64,000 nucleotides of DNA from an uncultured Candidatus Saccharibacteria bacterium (GTDB lineage Bacteria > Patescibacteriota > Minisyncoccia > Phycocordibacterales > DATGWK01): contig CAYRZH010000002.1 of the NCBI GenBank assembly GCA_964428845.1, forward strand, positions 6,924-70,923. Direction: 5' to 3'. The number at the start of each line of letters is the position of its first letter. Position 1 is the stretch's first letter. This document shows, one piece after another, positions 4,197-54,844 of the stretch. The translations under genes and the position numbers were made by a program. The notes beneath the pieces were generated by a model. It did no database searches. It was not told where the DNA came from and saw only the letters and a program-made list of their open reading frames with translations.

Positions 4197-4245
4197 GGGA
4201 ATTGGGTTATTTGAAGTTTATTTAGTATAAAAGAAAACCGCCCCC
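4197..4245 (-). repeat. conserved ~50-bp inter-cassette repeat unit, copy A
   Basis: GGGAATTGGGTTATTTGAAGTTTATTTAGTATAAAAGAAAACCGCCCC is about 85% identical to copy B at 4827-4876; its 3' end forms one arm of a terminator hairpin. Confidence 0.6.
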
Positions 4246-4268
4246 AACGGCTTTCCGTTGGGGGCGGG
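4231..4268 (-). terminator. intrinsic terminator for gene 4276-4665
   Basis: CCGCCCCCAACGG ctttc CCGTTGGGGGCGG hairpin followed by TTTTCTTTT on the minus strand. Confidence 0.7.
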
Positions 4269-4275
4269 ACTGATT

Positions 4276-4665
4276 TCAGCTTGCGAGCTGGACCTCGGAC
4301 GCACTGATGATCGGCGCCCAGGCTTCTTCAAGGGTTGGGAAGGCCTTGAGCGCCACTTCCACAAACCCATGAAGATTTCGATACGCGAACTCGACATCGT
4401 TGCTGTAGAGAGGAACCTGCCTCTCGCTCGAATAGACGAGGGTTGCGAACCCTGTCAGCTTCCAGCATTCGACGGCTCTCGAATGCTTCATTACCCTGAA
4501 GGTCCATCTGCACGACTCAGATTCGACCGTGGCTTCGATTCCATCCTTAGAAGAAAAGGGGACCATGCCGAAGGTCATTCTGATGACCTGATCGATCTCC
4601 GACCGCATCCTGTCGATGTTCCGTGAGCCCCGAATCAGACGAGCCGCGGTCTCCGTGCTGTTCAT
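4276..4665 (-). CDS. hypothetical protein (129 aa), GC-rich
   Basis: ATG at 4665 preceded by AAAAGGAG; no family recognised. Confidence 0.55.
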   Translation of the reverse strand: MNSTETAARLIRGSRNIDRMRSEIDQVIRMTFGMVPFSSKDGIEATVESESCRWTFRVMKHSRAVECWKLTGFATLVYSSERQVPLYSNDVEFAYRNLHGFVEVALKAFPTLEEAWAPIISASEVQLAS

Positions 4666-7924: not shown

Positions 7925-8242
7925 CTCCGCGGGTAGGATTCGAACCTACGACCAATCGCTTACATTTGCTCCAAGCTTTCGCTCGGTATGGACTATATCA
8001 TCATCCTTCACCTGGTGGGTGGTTTGGATGTGGGGCGCTTCGTTCTGCTCTTGCAGAACTACTCTCTTGCGAGATAGTCTCTGAACCTTTCCTTTGATAA
8101 TTAATCTGGGGACTTGGCTGCTGATTGCCCACGGCTTTACGTTTGGGTTTCCAGCAATTCACCTCATTTTTCAGCCCGTATTCCTACGGGAAGCTGCGTA
8201 ATTTCGACACAGGCGATCGCTCTACCACTGAGCTACCGCGGA
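7925..8242 (-). tRNA. tRNA-Asn(GUU) interrupted by a group I intron (exons 8242-8209 and 7962-7925)
   Basis: The 5' exon reads TCCGCGG TA GCTC AGTGGTA GAGC G ATCGC CUGU. The 3' exon reads UAA GCGAT TGGTC GTAGG TTCGAAT CCTAC CCGCGGA G. This gives a perfect 7-bp acceptor stem, a CUGUUAA anticodon loop and G73 discriminator (fits Asn); CCA is not encoded. Confidence 0.75.
7963..8208 (-). ncRNA. group I self-splicing intron (246 nt) in the tRNA-Asn anticodon loop
   Basis: The conserved core elements occur in the right order: P AATTGCTGGAAA (8159-8148), Q AATCAGCAGCC (8126-8116), R GTTCAGAGACTATC (8086-8073) and S GATGATATAGTCC (8002-7990). The 5' splice site follows a U, the intron ends in G, and a GCAG guide sequence can pair with exon CUGU (U.G). 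Confidence 0.75.
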
Positions 8243-8310
8243 ATATTATATTTTCTACAAACTTCAAAGAACGCTGAACATCATAGCAAAAACTCCTCTA
8301 TAATAAAAGC

Positions 8311-8544
8311 ATGTACATCAAAATCCGCGCCGTACCATCGGCTAAAAAAGAGCTGTTCGAGCAAGTCTCCAAAGACCACTTTAAGATTACTGTGCGCGAG
8401 AAGCCGAAGAACAACCAGGCCAATCAGCGCATCGTCGCTCTCGTGGCTTCCCACTTCAAGATCGCTTCAGGGAAGGTGAGAATTATTTCAGGCCATCATT
8501 CGCCAAGCAAAATTCTTTCAGTCGATATTGAAACAGTCGGTTAA
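8311..8544 (+). CDS. DUF167 / YggU-family protein
   Basis: MYIKIRAVPSAKKE....ITVREKPKNNQANQRIVALVASHF...GKVRIISG matches the YggU pattern. Confidence 0.65.
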   Translation: MYIKIRAVPSAKKELFEQVSKDHFKITVREKPKNNQANQRIVALVASHFKIASGKVRIISGHHSPSKILSVDIETVG

Positions 8545-8614: not shown

Positions 8615-9037
8615 ATGAAAAAGATTATCAGTAACCATACGAGCATGAAAATAAACATCAAAGCCACAAATATGCATTTGACTCCCGAAATATCAGATTA
8701 TCTAGAAAAGAAGATAAATATGCTCGACAGACTGATCGACCCAGCTGATACAAGCGTTTCCTGCAATATAGAAGTCGGCAAGACAACCAACCACCACAAA
8801 ACAGGAGATGTTTTTAGGACAGAAATAAATTTAACAAAAGATGGCAAATACTTTCGGGCAGTGGCGGAAGAGGAGACACTCAACGCCTCGATTGATGAAG
8901 CGAAAGATGAAATCATGCGAGAGCTTAAGAGCCACAAATCAAAACGCCAGACTCTCATTCGACGTGGTGGTGCGAGAATAAAGGATCTTATAAGGGGTGT
9001 TGGAAATCTGAAGAATTTGAGGCGGTGGAGGAGGTAG
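8615..9037 (+). CDS. hpf: ribosome hibernation promoting factor / RaiA-family protein
   Basis: MKINIKATNMHLTPEISDYLEKKI is a sigma-54 modulation / YfiA family signature; the start may be at 8645. Confidence 0.8.
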   Translation: MKKIISNHTSMKINIKATNMHLTPEISDYLEKKINMLDRLIDPADTSVSCNIEVGKTTNHHKTGDVFRTEINLTKDGKYFRAVAEEETLNASIDEAKDEIMRELKSHKSKRQTLIRRGGARIKDLIRGVGNLKNLRRWRR

Positions 9038-9244
9038 GGGTCTTGAATAGATATCGAAGCAGGACAGTGTCTGTTGTCTGGTTTGGAGATCGATCGAGGA
9101 GAGTCCGCAGGAAGATTTACTCATCCACATCACAGGGTTTTGAATAGACGCCGAGGCGAGACTAGCGAGCGCGACGGCGCGAGCTCGAGGAAAATTTTAG
9201 CAAAAATTTATCCGTGCTCGACGAGGTGTGCTATTCAAAACCCC
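9037..9244. repeat. MITE-like structured repeat, copy 1 (208 bp, terminal inverted repeats GGGGTCTTGAATAG / CTATTCAAAACCCC)
   Basis: It shares three modules with 31199-31496: GAGAGTCCGCAGGAAGATT, GGGGTTTTGAATAGAYGCCGAGGCGRG and TTTATCCGTGCTCGAC..CTATTCAARACCCC. It exactly fills the gap between the convergent hpf and fmt stop codons. Confidence 0.55.
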
Positions 9245-9246
9245 AA

Positions 9247-12548: not shown

Positions 12549-12550
12549 CT

Positions 12551-12670
12551 AAGACAAAATCCGCACAAGCTACCTCGCCTCGCACGGATATTTTTCTGCT
12601 GAAAAATTCCTCGTGCTCGCGCCGTCGCGCTCGCAAGGCTTCGTCTCGGTACTTGTGCGGATTTTGTCTT
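12551..12670. repeat. 120-bp element with 19-bp perfect terminal inverted repeats (AAGACAAAATCCGCACAAG / CTTGTGCGGATTTTGTCTT) around a GC-rich core
   Basis: Seen directly; the right arm overlaps the murA stop codon. It sits between murA and priA on the minus strand and may be a terminator structure or a MITE. Confidence 0.5.
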
Positions 12671-14180
12671 ATAAATCTCTCAATATCTGAATCTTTGCAC
12701 CAAGGCTATTGAGTCGCTTGATGATATCTTCGTAGCCACGATTGATACTGTAAATATTTCGTAGCACCGAGGTGCCCGAAGCCGCGAGCATACCGATAAG
12801 GATAATTGCGGCGGGGCGAAGGGCTGGCGGGCAAATGACCTCTGCCGCCTTGAGCTTTGTCGGACCGGTGATATAGATGCGATGTGGGTCGGCAAGTAGT
12901 GTGTCGGCGCCGAGTTTGTCGAGCTCTTTGTAGTGTATGGCGCGTTTCTCATAGACCCAGTCGTGTATAAAGGTGGTACCTTTGGCTTGGGTGGCGATCA
13001 CCGCGAAAAATGGAAGATTGTCTATGTTTAGTCCTGGATATGGTCGTGCCTCGATCTTTTCCTCGAGAGCCACGAGTTCGCTTGGTGATGTCTTGATATC
13101 TACTAGATTGGTACGTTCATTTAAGGCTTTATAACTTTTTATAATTTTATATTTAAAACCCATCTTCTCGAGTTTGAGCAGTTCGAGTTCTAGAAAATCA
13201 ATAGGACAGCGGCGAATGGTTATGCTCGACTTGGTCACTGCTGCCACGGCGATAAAAAACATGGACTCGATCGGATCCTCGCTCACATAATACGTGATCG
13301 GCTGGTCTATCACTTCTTTACCATGGATAGTTATTGTCGTTGTGCCTATACCTTCTATCTTCACGCCCAATTTTTCTAAAAAAAAGCAGACTTCTTGGCC
13401 CATGTAGTTGGCAGAAGCAAACTTGATGACAGTTTTTCCCGGGATCTTGGCGGCGGCGATGATGGTATTTTCGGTAACTGTGTCACCAGACTCGTAGAGC
13501 ACGATATAGTTGGGTTTGAGTGCATCTCTCTTCACCTCATAATGTTTGGAGGTGGTTTTTATATCCACCCCAAACTTTTCTAGGGCAAAAACATGAGGCT
13601 GTATAGTCCTAGAACCAAGTCTACACCCGCCAGCCTGGGGGAGTTTAAAACTTTTCGAGTTATGTATTAGGGAGCCGATAAGCATGATAATGCTTCTAGT
13701 TTTCTCTGCGGCTTCTGTGTTTATCTTTTTTATATCAATATTTTTAGGTGGTTTTATCTCGAGATCAGCACCACTCCATTTTGCCGATACGCCCATGCTC
13801 TCGAAGACCTCTATCATCCTGCGAACTTCTTCTATGCGAGGAACATTTTTTAAGATTGTTTTGTTTTTGTTTAAAAGGGAAGCGGCAAGAAGACCCATGG
13901 TGCCGTTTTTTGAAGTTTTTGTGACGATCTCGCCGGAAAGTTTTCTCCCGCCATCTATTTTTACATTTATTGCGCCACGAGAAATATTTAGAATATCCTT
14001 GTTCAACACAGAGCTGATCTTTGAGAGTGTCTCCGTGCTTAGGTTCTGCTCACCCTTCTCGATACGAGCAATGACACTTTGGGTTGTTCCGAGTGCTTTA
14101 CCAAACTCTTTCTGGGTGATACCACGCTCTTCTCGGAGGGTATGTATAAGTTTGCCGATATGTGCGAGCTGACTTTTCAT
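12669..14180 (-). CDS. murA: UDP-N-acetylglucosamine 1-carboxyvinyltransferase with an N-terminal XRE-type helix-turn-helix domain (HTH-MurA fusion)
   Basis: The N-terminal ~75 aa (LIHTLREERGITQKEFGKALGTTQSVIARIEKGEQNLSTETLSKISSVL) is an XRE HTH. It continues in one frame into a MurA N-terminus (KNGTMGLLAASLL..NVP) and a full MurA body. Confidence 0.8.
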   Translation of the reverse strand: MKSQLAHIGKLIHTLREERGITQKEFGKALGTTQSVIARIEKGEQNLSTETLSKISSVLNKDILNISRGAINVKIDGGRKLSGEIVTKTSKNGTMGLLAASLLNKNKTILKNVPRIEEVRRMIEVFESMGVSAKWSGADLEIKPPKNIDIKKINTEAAEKTRSIIMLIGSLIHNSKSFKLPQAGGCRLGSRTIQPHVFALEKFGVDIKTTSKHYEVKRDALKPNYIVLYESGDTVTENTIIAAAKIPGKTVIKFASANYMGQEVCFFLEKLGVKIEGIGTTTITIHGKEVIDQPITYYVSEDPIESMFFIAVAAVTKSSITIRRCPIDFLELELLKLEKMGFKYKIIKSYKALNERTNLVDIKTSPSELVALEEKIEARPYPGLNIDNLPFFAVIATQAKGTTFIHDWVYEKRAIHYKELDKLGADTLLADPHRIYITGPTKLKAAEVICPPALRPAAIILIGMLAASGTSVLRNIYSINRGYEDIIKRLNSLGAKIQILRDL

Positions 14181-14285
14181 ATTTAAAATCAGCATAGCAT
14201 ATATGATATGTTTTGTCTTGTCATTGATGATCTGAATTGTGGATAATGATAAGTAATCTTTTCTAGGCCAAACTTTTTTCATAAA

Positions 14286-29887: not shown

Positions 29888-30301
29888 TCATGGGATATTG
29901 CCGCTATAGATGATCCTGGAGAAATCGATGTCCTTCTCCGAGAGTGTTTTTAGCGACATATTCATCTCCGCGTCTCTTGAGTAGATAAAGTAGGTGCCGG
30001 GTTCGAGTGCTACGACACCATGGTCCTTGGTAAAGAACGTGTTACCGTCAGCTTCCTCGACGTCGGCAACTCCCAGCTCTCTGTTCACCTTAAGTACCCT
30101 GTACGGGACGTTCGGCCGAAATTGTTGTTCAGGTGTCTGCGAGCGTGGTAGAGGAATTGGGAAAGCTCTCGGACTCTGCATTTCGGCCAAGGTCAGCTCC
30201 TTCAGGAAGAAGAAAGGTCCAAGAAACAAAACGATTATTGCTCCAATGACGATGATAAAAGCTGTTAGATCAGCAGATCCCCTGCGACTGAATTTCCTCA
30301 T
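29888..30301 (-). CDS. hypothetical membrane-anchored protein (138 aa)
   Basis: ATG at 30301 with an AAGGGAG RBS; N-terminal TM helix; a C-terminal beta-rich domain with the motif LEPGTYFIY. Confidence 0.5.
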   Translation of the reverse strand: MRKFSRRGSADLTAFIIVIGAIIVLFLGPFFFLKELTLAEMQSPRAFPIPLPRSQTPEQQFRPNVPYRVLKVNRELGVADVEEADGNTFFTKDHGVVALEPGTYFIYSRDAEMNMSLKTLSEKDIDFSRIIYSGNIP

Positions 30302-30453
30302 TTCTTCACTCCCTTTCGTTATGGTGGTGTGATGATTGTTTGCAACAAACACAATTCTGCCAACATACTACATATGGCTAAATCATCAGTCAAGATAGCC
30401 CAATAGTTCAATTGCTTAGGCTATTTGAGTAATACACTGTTTCCCAAAATGAA

Positions 30454-30505: not shown

Positions 30506-31066
30506 TCAGCAGGCCGCGAGCGATCCGCTGCGGGGGGGCTGGGGACCAACCCCGACCGCTTCCGTACCGACGGGTGGTCTGTTGTTGGCAACGATGGATC
30601 CCGGTAGACCCTCAACATACGCCAGTGATTCGGTAGTAGTCCGAGTGACACCGGCGAAACCTCCCTGGAGCACCACTTTCGTGGTGACGATGTATCGGTA
30701 CTTCCCAGGTGTCAGATTCAGGAAAACCTCGTCCTCCCGACCATGAATGGAGATATCCCGTAGCGGCCGCACGACGCGCAACCGGCCGTTTTGTACGACG
30801 AGCATGTACTCAACATCGTCGTGACGAAAGCCCCCCCTCACCTCGAGGATGTCGCCTGGCTCGAACACCTTACTGATGAACATGGGGCAGCCGATCCTGG
30901 CCTTGTAGGAATCTCGATCTCGCACAGTGGCGGCGATAAAGGAACACACAATGATGAGCACGATGAGCACCAGGACAATTGCGGCTGCCTCCCCAAAGGT
31001 GAACCAGGATCCTCCCGAGCTCATCTGGTCCGACGTCTGCGCCAACACGAGACTGAAATTGAACAC
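30506..31066 (-). CDS. hypothetical membrane-anchored protein (186 aa), GC-rich paralog of 29888-30301
   Basis: GTG at 31066 with an AAAGGAG RBS; TM helix; the motif LTPGKYRYIV parallels LEPGTYFIY of the neighbouring gene; about 58% GC. Confidence 0.5.
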   Translation of the reverse strand: MFNFSLVLAQTSDQMSSGGSWFTFGEAAAIVLVLIVLIIVCSFIAATVRDRDSYKARIGCPMFISKVFEPGDILEVRGGFRHDDVEYMLVVQNGRLRVVRPLRDISIHGREDEVFLNLTPGKYRYIVTTKVVLQGGFAGVTRTTTESLAYVEGLPGSIVANNRPPVGTEAVGVGPQPPRSGSLAAC

Positions 31067-31198
31067 GTTCTTCTCCTTTTTCCAAAGTGCTTGGTTGCGG
31101 TGCCCGACATAGGCAACCGATTATTTCCAAGGTTGATTATAGCACGCTTGATAGCATCTTGTCAATGAGTAAAACAAAATCCCCAGCAAACTTGCCAC

Positions 31199-31496
31199 GA
31201 GAGAGTCCGCAGGAAGATTCGGTATCTACATCATGGGGTTTTGAATAGATGCCGAGGCGGGATGATGTCTGGCCACAGAGATCGTTCGAGGAGAGTCCGC
31301 AGGAAGATTTGCATGGTCTGTCAAGTTGGCCAGATATCTAGAGTAGGTTCTCTTATATAGATTACCTGGCCAACTTTACAGAAATCTTCCGAGGATTAGG
31401 AAATTTGTCCGCTGGGACAAATTTCCGCTCTCCGAGAGCGATACTCTGTGGCGGACATGTTTATCCGTGCTCGACAGGCTGTCTATTCAAGACCCC
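31199..31496. repeat. MITE-like structured repeat, copy 2 (~298 bp)
   Basis: Contains the same three modules as copy 1. Nested perfect inverted repeats (CAAGTTGGCCAG/CTGGCCAACTT; GGCCACAGAG/CTCTGTGGC) point to a long imperfect hairpin. Confidence 0.55.
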
Positions 31497-31622
31497 TTTG
31501 GGAGGGGCAATGCTTGCTGGGGGTTTGTTGTGGCCGGTCTTTCTGTGGATAACAGTGTATTCTTGTGGGATAAAGTGGTATATACTTTGTATCAAGTGGG
31601 TGAAGGTGGTAAACTTTGATTC

Positions 31623-32057
31623 ATGCTCATCGGTGAATACACTCATACCATCGACAACAAGAACCGCATTTCTCTTCCTGCAAAATTTAGGAAAGAAATC
31701 GGCAAAAAAATTGTTGTCACTCACGGTCTAGATAACTGTCTCTTTCTCTATTCGACTCCCGAGTGGAAGAAAATTTCCGAGAAACTTGGGAACCTCGGAA
31801 TGGGGCAGGCAGATACTAGAGGGTTCAATCGTTTTATGCTCGCAGGCGCAGTTGAGATCGATGTGGATTCCATAGGAAGGATCCTCATCCCAGATTTTTT
31901 GAAGAAGTTCGCCGGGTTTGTGGAAAAAGTTGTTTTCACTGGCGTACACAATCGCATAGAGATCTGGGACGAAGTTCGCTGGGGTGAGTATAAAGCGAAG
32001 ATTGAGAAGCAGGCCGATAAGCTTGCCGAAAAACTTGGTGAGATTGGTGTGTTTTAG
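31623..32057 (+). CDS. mraZ: division/cell-wall cluster transcriptional regulator MraZ
   Basis: MLIGEYTHTIDNKNRISLPAKFR with duplicated MraZ repeats. Confidence 0.9.
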   Translation: MLIGEYTHTIDNKNRISLPAKFRKEIGKKIVVTHGLDNCLFLYSTPEWKKISEKLGNLGMGQADTRGFNRFMLAGAVEIDVDSIGRILIPDFLKKFAGFVEKVVFTGVHNRIEIWDEVRWGEYKAKIEKQADKLAEKLGEIGVF

Positions 32058-36438: not shown

Positions 36439-36510
36439 GGCCCTATCGTCTAACGGTTAGGACGGGAGCTTCTCAAGCTCCAAATCCGGGTTCGATTCCC
36501 GGTAGGGTCA
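36439..36510 (+). tRNA. tRNA-Glu(CUC)
   Basis: GGCCCTA TC GTCT AACGGTTA GGAC G GGAGC TTCTCAA GCTCC AAAT CCGGG TTCGATT CCCGG TAGGGTC A; a Glu-like D-arm. Confidence 0.75.
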
Positions 36511-36650
36511 GAGATTTGAGCGGGCCGAGAAGCTCTGGCCCTAAGCGGGCCGACTTCTCGGCCCGCGTCCGGGAATCGAACGCCGGAGCGATGTTTCGCC
36601 AGTAGGCGAAACCGCGAGGCGGTGCCCAGCCCGAGGCTAGGGCGGCGAGC
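36511..36650. other. GC-rich hairpin-dense segment following the tRNA (includes an inverted T-arm-like fragment)
   Basis: Perfect hairpins GCGGGCCGA cttc TCGGCCCGC (36546-36567) and GTTTCGCC agta GGCGAAAC (36592-36615); GTCCGGGAATCGAACGCC is an inverted partial copy of the tRNA T-arm. Confidence 0.4.
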
Positions 36651-36681
36651 CGAGAGGCGCGGGAGATTCCCGGTAGGGTAA
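36651..36681 (+). repeat. direct repeat DR-a containing a copy of the tRNA-Glu 3' end (att-like)
   Basis: CGAGAGGCGCGGGAGATTCCCGGTAGGGTAA; 14 of its bases (ATTCCCGGTAGGGT) match the tRNA 3' end. Confidence 0.6.
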
Positions 36682-36760
36682 TAGATGCTAAATATTAATT
36701 TGATCATTTGTGTTATATTCTCATAAGAAACACCTTAGCCATTACAGGAGGGAGTAATAA

Positions 36761-37060: not shown

Positions 37061-37073
37061 GCGTCTTTTTAGT

Positions 37074-37104
37074 CGAGAGGCGCGGGAGATTCCCGGTAGG
37101 GTCA
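37074..37104 (+). repeat. direct repeat DR-b (second copy, 30/31 identical to DR-a)
   Basis: CGAGAGGCGCGGGAGATTCCCGGTAGGGTCA; 17 nt are identical to the tRNA-Glu 3' end including the discriminator. Confidence 0.6.
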
Positions 37105-37149
37105 TGCGAGCAAAAAATCACGGCCTTTTGCTCATATTAGATAAAACAA

Positions 37150-54621: not shown

Positions 54622-54648
54622 AAAACTAGAAGCAACTAATTAAACTTA

Positions 54649-54675
54649 AAACCCCGCATGTGCGGGGTTTTAAGT
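54649..54675. terminator. bidirectional intrinsic terminator
   Basis: AAAACCCCGCA tgt GCGGGGTTTT. Confidence 0.7.
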
Positions 54676-54844
54676 TTGTAAAGAGAGTGATTTTTATAAG
54701 TATTTTTTTATACAATCAAGCAAAATAAACAGATTGACACTGGTGGGGAAGGGGAGTAAATTCAAATGCGGAATCGAACATTGAATTTATAAAAAGTAAT
54801 CAAAAATACACACCGGGCTCTTGCCCAGAAAGGTTGAGTGAGAA

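Follow-up and report, generated by a model that had tools for sequence, protein, structure and literature searches.

The mraZ locus

The window (the whole 64-kb stretch of DNA that was analysed, from a genome that the relatives of its RsmH and MraZ place in Patescibacteria / Paceibacterota (Parcubacteria)) contains 30 intergenic gaps of at least 60 bp. No intergenic gap in the window is longer than the 556-bp one before mraZ, which is also by far the most structured of these 30. It holds a non-coding element, referred to here as copy 2, which is wedged between two divergent promoters in the following arrangement:

30506-31066, minus strand: accessory ORF, Pfam-less, in a kilobase of 52.6% G+C
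31136-31165, minus strand: sigma-70-type promoter of the accessory ORF (TTGACA-18-TATAAT, 12/12, with TG); left bound of copy 2
31173-31533, plus strand (sense): copy 2 at full extent, a 361-nt rod, nearly all paired, with one side hairpin
31545-31622, plus strand: mraZ promoter/operator block with repeated GTGG boxes; right bound of copy 2, intact
31623-32057, plus strand: mraZ (PF02381 relatives)

The accessory ORF, which is small and of membrane type, is one of two small minus-strand ORFs between lysS and mraZ (29888-30352 and 30506-31066) that are G+C-rich; G+C in the window is mostly 38-47%, compared with the 52.6% of this ORF's kilobase. No similarity was found between this 186-aa neighbour and the ORF at the same position in a syntenic relative (L037), and the lysS-mraZ interval appears to be a fast-evolving accessory slot. 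On the other side of copy 2, the block at 31545-31622 combines the GTGG boxes with a TATACT element and reaches the mraZ ATG. Aligned with seven related loci, it displays 46 invariant columns, and we take it to be an MraZ-binding operator of the kind described in published MraZ operator work. For the sense strand of copy 2 itself, the promoter scan returned no promoter; one weak candidate (TTGATA-16-TAAAAC, ~31144-31171) was seen by eye.

The initial annotation had placed the element between a G+C-rich accessory gene and mraZ, just upstream of the dcw promoter region, and both statements are borne out, the accessory ORF being relatively G+C-rich. Its further suggestion that an insertion here could affect mraZ promoter architecture is speculation; the MraZ-box block is intact and begins 12 bp downstream of the element. 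Copy 2 most simply pushes the two divergent promoters ~300 bp apart with the MraZ operator untouched; since both operator and promoter are untouched, copy 2 is unlikely to have rewired mraZ control.

Repeats and fold of copy 2

Copy 2 is crossed only by short, unconserved ORFs, and its parts, all on the plus strand, are as follows:

31173-31196: 5' arm of the outermost stem (AACAAAATCCCCAGCAAACTTGCC), paired with 31508-31533 in both the MFE and the centroid folds
31201-31219: first 19-nt module (B'), an exact match, in an asymmetric bulge of the outer stem
31235-31262: A module and 5' junction strand (GGGGTTTTGAATAGATGCCGAGGCGGGA), paired with 31460-31496; common to copy 1
31291-31309: second 19-nt module (B), the 5' strand of the inner arm, paired with 31382-31398
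31317-31382: apical hairpin of the long arm (AAGTTGGCCAG / CTGGCCAACTT), from inverted repeat and fold
31399-31426: side hairpin with a perfect 12-bp stem and loop GCTG, at the P3 position of the three-way junction
31460-31496: E module (TTTATCCGTGCTCGAC...TCTATTCAAGACCCC), the 3' junction strand and the complement of A; common to copy 1
31508-31533: 3' arm of the outermost stem (GGCAATGCTTGCTGGGGGTTTGTTGT), with a U-rich tract at its end

The 19-nt module GAGAGTCCGCAGGAAGATT had been reported twice in copy 2, and it is indeed exact at 31201-31219 and 31291-31309, with a further exact match in the window at 9099-9117 (0.01 matches expected by chance; three matches reached in none of 100 shuffles). 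In the fold, the first of these modules (B') is largely unpaired or weakly paired. The nested perfect inverted repeats named by the initial annotation are likewise all present, and several more were found. They include AAGTTGGCCAG / CTGGCCAACTT (11 perfect bp, held in a 20-nt arm pair at 31317-31336 / 31363-31382 with 90% identity), GCCACAGAG / CTCTGTGGC (9 perfect bp, 31272-31280 / 31444-31452), GGGGTTTTGAATAGA / TCTATTCAAGACCCC (31235-31249 / 31482-31496), GGAAGATTT / AAATCTTCC (31302-31310 / 31382-31390), and a 13-nt inverted repeat that overlaps part of the 5' outer arm. In this arm, an A-tract precedes a G+C stem base, much as in a terminator.

As for the predicted ~300-nt hairpin, the fold lies far beyond chance, and it is the size that needs revision, the outer stem 31173-31196/31508-31533 extending the element to 361 nt. 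Over this full extent the RNA fold reaches -183.5 kcal/mol (z = -11.3) and the single-stranded DNA fold -94.4 kcal/mol (z -14.8). In a narrower box (31190-31505), the plus strand folds at -157.5 kcal/mol (z = -10.4), a value equalled by none of 100 shuffles, compared with -136.4 kcal/mol for the minus strand.

A family built around a three-way junction

Two other elements in the window are related to copy 2, and a fourth member was found in L039, a Paceibacterota contig from an independent sample and assembly (ERR3478686). The other three members are listed below:

9037-9245, plus strand: copy 1, filling the whole gap from the stop of the hpf-like gene to the fmt stop
12550-12671, minus strand: copy 3, in the gap between the murA-like gene and priA
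L039, 1572-1691: fourth member, directly after lysS (covariance model 51.6 bits, E 5e-14)

Copy 1, which adjoins the hpf-like gene (PF02482), consists of an A1-x-B-C segment (9037-9134) followed by the three-way-junction core (9135-9245). Copy 3, which is absent from the initial annotation and was found by BLASTN, lies upstream of priA, and the murA-like gene's stop codon forms the start of its 5' arm; its outer stem is a perfect 20 bp, and it folds at -63.1 kcal/mol (z -8.8). The L039 member was found solely by a covariance model built from copies 1 and 3, and its independent MFE fold yields the same three-way junction.

Copies 1 and 3 and the L039 member have in common a three-way junction of ~120 nt. 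The junction is closed by a long stem, P1, whose sequence varies and which usually shows the A-tract / G+C stem / U-tract layout of a terminator. The other two arms are hairpins: P2, a G+C one, has a GACG loop, and P3, an A+U one, an AGCA loop. The core of copies 1 and 3 spans 77 nt and is 82% identical, whereas the closing or outer stems around it are unrelated in copy 1, copy 3 and L039, with 25-33% identity, i.e., random. RNAalifold on copies 1 and 3 returns the three-way junction, with 10 of 33 pairs compensated and none broken. With the L039 member added, 99% of cells are paired and 19 of the 33 pairs have changed on both sides, in a test that comprises three sequences and an alignment fitted to the model. 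In the controls for this test, none of 500 shuffles reached any of the five measures, and slid alignments were at most 54% paired. Compensatory substitutions across homologues, the generic mark of a structured RNA, are therefore present in these three members, and the conserved feature of the family is an internal three-way junction with heavy covariation, not the termini. No further members were found in the window with filters off, nor in ~300 kb of other Patescibacteria loci.

The three-way topology is retained in copy 2, with P1 and P2 greatly lengthened. Its P1 is composed of the outer stem, A/E, the junction strands and x/x*, and its P2 is replaced by a long arm of B/B* plus the apical hairpin 31317-31382. 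Similarity to copy 1 is high in the shared parts: the region of 31235-31262 aligns with 9099-9161 at 86% identity over 63 nt (A module, 5' junction strand and upstream B-C), 31460-31496 with 9207-9244 at 87% over 38 nt, with an exact 16-mer at both sites, and the A-x-B unit at 77% over 83 nt. The 5' strand of copy 2 also bears a partial tandem duplication, namely the second 19-nt module. From their module order (A1-x-B-C-A2-core-E in copy 1; B'-C-A2-x-B-...-E in copy 2), the two elements appear to represent one ~90-99-nt tandem unit in two different phases, and this would account for the doubling of A in copy 1 and of B in copy 2. Only a 9-mer is common to the copy 3 stem and the outermost stem of copy 2; homology between them is unproven, and the 9-mer is read as shared terminator-like composition.

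Strand, gene ends and terminator likeness

The folds favour one strand. Over the four elements, sense folds contain 21 G.U pairs vs five in antisense folds (12 vs 4 for the plus and minus strands of copy 2), and the sense MFE is the lower in all four. Copies 1 and 3 and the L039 member each begin on, or 0-2 nt after, the stop codon of a gene in the same orientation (hpf, murA and lysS, respectively). Moreover, the outer stems of copy 3 and L039 and the outermost stem of copy 2 follow an A-tract / G+C stem / U-tract layout, their stem ends reading CCGCAC...GTGCGG+ATTTTGTCTT in copy 3, GCCTGGAAC...GTTCCGGGC+TTTTCTTC in L039, and CCCCAGCAA...TTGCTGGGGG+TTTGTTGT in copy 2; copy 1 is without a U-tract. 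A simple terminator scan of the regions around copies 1 and 2 reported none there because it required a loop of 3-8 nt, and the loops of these elements exceed 8 nt. From the sense G.U bias, the placement at stop codons and the terminator-like outer stems, we infer that the structure forms as RNA at transcript 3' ends, as a terminator or a 3'-protective hairpin.

Other features of the window

Several features elsewhere in the window were recorded in passing. An ordinary bidirectional intrinsic terminator (54642-54677, AAAACCCCGCA..TGCGGGGTTTT) has a layout like that of the elements' outer stems, and another terminator of this ordinary bidirectional type (4228-4277) consists of a 13-bp G+C stem followed by UUUUCUUUU. 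A group I intron lies at 7970-8315 on the minus strand (Rfam RF00028, 82.1 bits, E 2.5e-19); in its alignment, a large P1-P2 insertion reads as the 5' half of a tRNA (gcgguagcucagugguagagcgaucgccugug), and the interval is probably an intron-containing tRNA gene uncalled by ARAGORN. Near tRNA-Glu (36439-36510), two 48-nt direct repeats (36648-36695 and 37071-37118, 83% identical, with GCGCGGGAGATTCCCGGTAGGGT) resemble the 3' end of that tRNA (CCGGGTTCGATTCCCGGTAGGGTCA) and may be att-like scars of integration beside it. The murA-like gene (12669-14282, minus strand) has a longest ORF of 537 aa with an EPSP_synthase fold, compared with 439 aa in the syntenic relative, and carries an Xre-type HTH_3 domain at its N-terminus (E 6e-17), which reflects either a fusion or an upstream in-frame HTH gene / start-codon issue.

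Presence and absence in related genomes

The closest long syntenic relative, contig SRR26992859_351554, has the same gene order as the window around all three sites, and all three are empty in it. The gaps compare as follows:

hpf/fmt gap (copy 1 site): 2 bp in the relative (L061), 209 bp in the window
murA/priA gap (copy 3 site): 46 bp in the relative (L061), 159 bp in the window
small ORF/mraZ gap (copy 2 site): 267 bp in the relative, 556 bp in the window

At the hpf/fmt and murA/priA sites, the excess is approximately the length of the element. The mraZ site is also empty in L038, L058, L060, L067 and L069, and among the seven related loci whose mraZ promoters were aligned, L039 is alone in having an upstream element. 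Of eight related genomes, two (that of the window, with copy 2, and L039) thus carry a member at the equivalent position, upstream of the mraZ operator. Such patchiness is as expected for a mobile or rapidly turning-over element. The two members at the mraZ spot could instead represent an old, functional, vertically inherited element with losses, or a target preference. The empty sites, for their part, may reflect lineage-specific loss or slow growth of a hairpin in place, because the relative that has them is distant (62% amino-acid identity for Fmt and 90% for MraZ). As a separate observation, the independent assemblies of L058, L059, L067 and L068 break ~100-160 bp upstream of mraZ, which could be coincidence among short contigs or could result from repeats or strain variation there.

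Searches against known families

With Rfam 15, the elements of the window gave no match at the gathering score, and relaxing the threshold to E <= 10 produced only noise (miRNA, snoRNA, lncRNA and CRISPR-repeat models) and, for L039, nothing. The families covered include RNase P, 6S, the raiA motif, self-cleaving ribozymes, HEARO, OLE, ROOL and GOLLD. BLASTN against phages and plasmids found no match for copies 1 and 2, and an exact scan for GAGAGTCCGCAGGAAGATT found none in 185,579 species genomes; the one metagenome match to this module among the matches listed lies inside a histidine-kinase ORF and was dismissed as chance. Viral 16-mer and gapped core-pattern scans returned 10, 8, 0 and 5 matches, none of which extended beyond the seed or scored with the model.

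A number of specific candidates were considered and rejected. RNase P came to mind for copy 2 through GAGGAGAGTCCGCAGG and an ACAGAAA motif recalling CR-I/CR-V, but Rfam gave no match at E <= 10, the pairing partners are different from those of RNase P or another known RNA, and relatives lack the element. The raiA motif, suggested for copy 1 by its position beside hpf/raiA, had no Rfam match either. A TIGR array or a DGR template-variable repeat was discounted, there being no tandem array, no A-specificity in the mismatches and no overlap with a coding 3' end.

Origin and role of the family

On balance, copy 2 is probably a composite element and the largest one in a lineage-restricted family of structured, non-coding repeats that this Patescibacteria (Paceibacterota) genome carries. 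The family would be non-autonomous and related to MITE/REP elements without being a classical MITE, and its conserved unit would be the ~80-nt core, which is predicted to fold with its flanking arms into the three-way junction. Members would have been gained at gene ends and intergenic sites by a family that is, or formerly was, mobile or copy-and-paste, and that spread without the TIR/TSD signature of DDE-type MITEs. Folding would take place on the sense strand and most likely in RNA. Where genes end in tandem or converge (copies 1 and 3 and L039), the structure may act as a terminator or a 3'-end-protecting hairpin; at the mraZ site, where there is nothing obvious to terminate between divergent promoters, copy 2 would most simply be a tolerated, expanded insertion. 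The small number of known members (four, of which one genome supplies three) counts against the family reading.

The initial annotation called the element MITE-like, and this description holds insofar as the elements are repeated, structured, non-coding and absent at orthologous sites in relatives. It is mechanistically unsupported, since the flanks of all four members were read and no direct repeat was seen, since no terminal repeat is family-wide (GGGGTYTTGAATAGA occurs in copies 1 and 2 only), and since the core rather than the ends is conserved; nor is there a transposase domain or other mobility gene among the 20 window ORFs scanned. A classical MITE, i.e., a deletion derivative of an IS moved in trans by a DDE transposase through GGGGTYTTGAATAGA as terminal inverted repeats and leaving target-site duplications, would account for small (120-361 nt), non-coding, multi-copy elements (three in 64 kb and one in L039) with long hairpin potential, for the 15-nt inverted termini A/E common to copies 1 and 2, and for the sites that are empty in relatives (three of three in the syntenic contig). 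This origin is nonetheless quite unlikely: besides the missing duplications and the lack of a transposase among the ORFs scanned, the outer stems of copy 3 and L039 are unrelated around an 82% core, which is the opposite of MITE conservation, the A/E repeat of copy 2 is internal to a further stem, and the exact 19-nt B module is absent from the 185,579 species genomes. A chance palindrome or an assembly or amplification artefact (an inverted chimera) can be regarded as effectively refuted; MDA chimeras can yield long inverted repeats in single-cell or low-biomass assemblies, but here the stems are imperfect with compensated changes, the family recurs at three sites of the window and is also represented in a second, independently sampled and assembled genome, z-scores run from -9 to -11, and no shuffle out of 500 matches the observed covariation.

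The possibility that deserves most attention beside a mobile repeat family, although we hold it to be less than probable, is a host-encoded functional RNA that does not move, namely a conserved three-way junction that several genes use as a 3'-UTR, terminator or protein-binding element, with the mraZ copy as an old regulatory or insulating element that expanded (a lysS terminator, as in L039). The very strong covariation, the conservation of the GACG and AGCA loops and of junction nucleotides across two genomes, the sense-strand G.U bias, the resemblance to terminators of the outer stem in copy 3 and L039 and of the outermost one in copy 2, the abutment of all three core-type members on the stop codon of a co-oriented gene, and the members beside the mraZ operator at the same position in two genomes all argue for such an RNA. 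Its difficulties lie in the three sites that are empty in the syntenic relative and the empty mraZ upstream region in six of seven loci, in the absence of any member from ~300 kb of related genomes, in the position of copy 2 between divergent promoters, with no transcript to terminate, and in the abrupt boundary between the core and unrelated stems, which fits copying of the core more easily than divergence in place. An element acting at the DNA level—a cruciform or single-stranded hairpin serving as a recombination, replication or attC-like site, or as an HUH substrate (IS200/IS605, REP/RAYT)—would suit the strong single-stranded DNA fold (-94.4 kcal/mol, z -14.8), an outer stem conserved in structure rather than sequence, starts at stop codons, where attC sites often start as well, and the lack of target-site duplications, which IS200/IS605 and REP systems likewise do not make. 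We rate it very unlikely, as no Y1/HUH transposase, integrase or RAYT domain occurs among the ORFs scanned, P2 and P3 are mutually unlike, contrary to the LE/RE hairpins that, in established IS608 biology, are bound by one TnpA, and the G.U(T) strand bias fits RNA at least equally well. Integron attC core sites (RYYYAAC/GTTRRRY) are absent from the sequence, and the neighbours (hpf, fmt, murA, priA, lysS and mraZ) are housekeeping genes in conserved synteny, not cassettes.

A bolder form of the mobile-family reading, which taken as a whole we consider unlikely, would make the ~80-nt core (CCGAG...P2[GACG loop]...P3[AGCA loop]...CGAGG) a structured RNA/DNA module of CPR bacteria that propagates itself and has so far gone undescribed. 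Such a 'mobile terminator' would enter, or bring with it, terminator-like stems at gene ends and would work without TIRs, target-site duplications or an adjacent enzyme gene, and the 361-nt copy would be a grown-out derivative insulating the dcw promoter from its divergent neighbour.

To our knowledge, the literature describes few repeat families or structured non-coding RNAs from the small, streamlined genomes of Patescibacteria (CPR), and our search of it for such repeats and RNAs in this group found nothing relevant. A family in which structure, not termini, is kept by compensatory change, and which sits at gene ends and varies between related genomes, would be a useful handle on transcript termination and stabilisation in Patescibacteria, as well as on the spread of non-autonomous elements there. 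For the dcw cluster, copy 2 adds ~300 bp of cruciform-prone DNA between divergent promoters.

Comparison with known systems

Among known small repeats, the MITEs of other bacteria (Correia/NEMIS in Neisseria, bcr1 in Bacillus cereus and RUP in Streptococcus) resemble the family in being short, non-coding, intergenic and present in several copies, in their potential to form long hairpins, and in being found in some related genomes but not in others. Certain MITEs are known to work as terminators or to modify promoters. The family differs from them in that there is no target-site duplication, the interior rather than the termini is conserved, no cognate IS was found among the window ORFs scanned and the stems covary. 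REP/BIME and ERIC elements of enterobacteria are similar in another respect, as they are extragenic palindromes at gene ends without target-site duplications; they are transcribed in 3' UTRs and serve as mRNA 3'-end stabilisers or terminator-like elements. The mosaic clusters of BIMEs, with their direct and inverted units, are comparable to the A/B/x modules of the family. However, REPs measure 20-40 nt, have a GTAG-type head and are associated with RAYT, whereas the units described here span 120-361 nt and contain a three-way junction, no RAYT was seen with them (no Y1_Tnp-type match among the ORFs scanned), and their copy number appears low, unlike that of REP/BIME.

The outer stems of copy 3, L039 and copy 2 are like intrinsic bidirectional terminators, with an A-tract, a G+C-rich base and a U-rich tail. 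Unlike such terminators, their 'loop' is a conserved, structured insert of 80 nt (~310 nt in copy 2); in addition, copy 1 is without a U-tract, and copy 2 lies between divergent promoters. Finally, some mobile elements target hairpins: IS1397 and ISKpn1 insert in REP loops, class C group II introns insert beside terminators, and small dispersed repeats are nested in cyanobacterial hairpins. Such elements encode or need known transposases or reverse transcriptases, none of which was found among the window ORFs scanned, and a pre-existing hairpin is absent at the copy 1 and copy 3 sites of the syntenic relative. Hairpin targeting would, on the other hand, account for the abrupt boundary and for what we see as the point of most interest, namely a covarying three-way-junction core conserved inside unrelated terminator-like stems.
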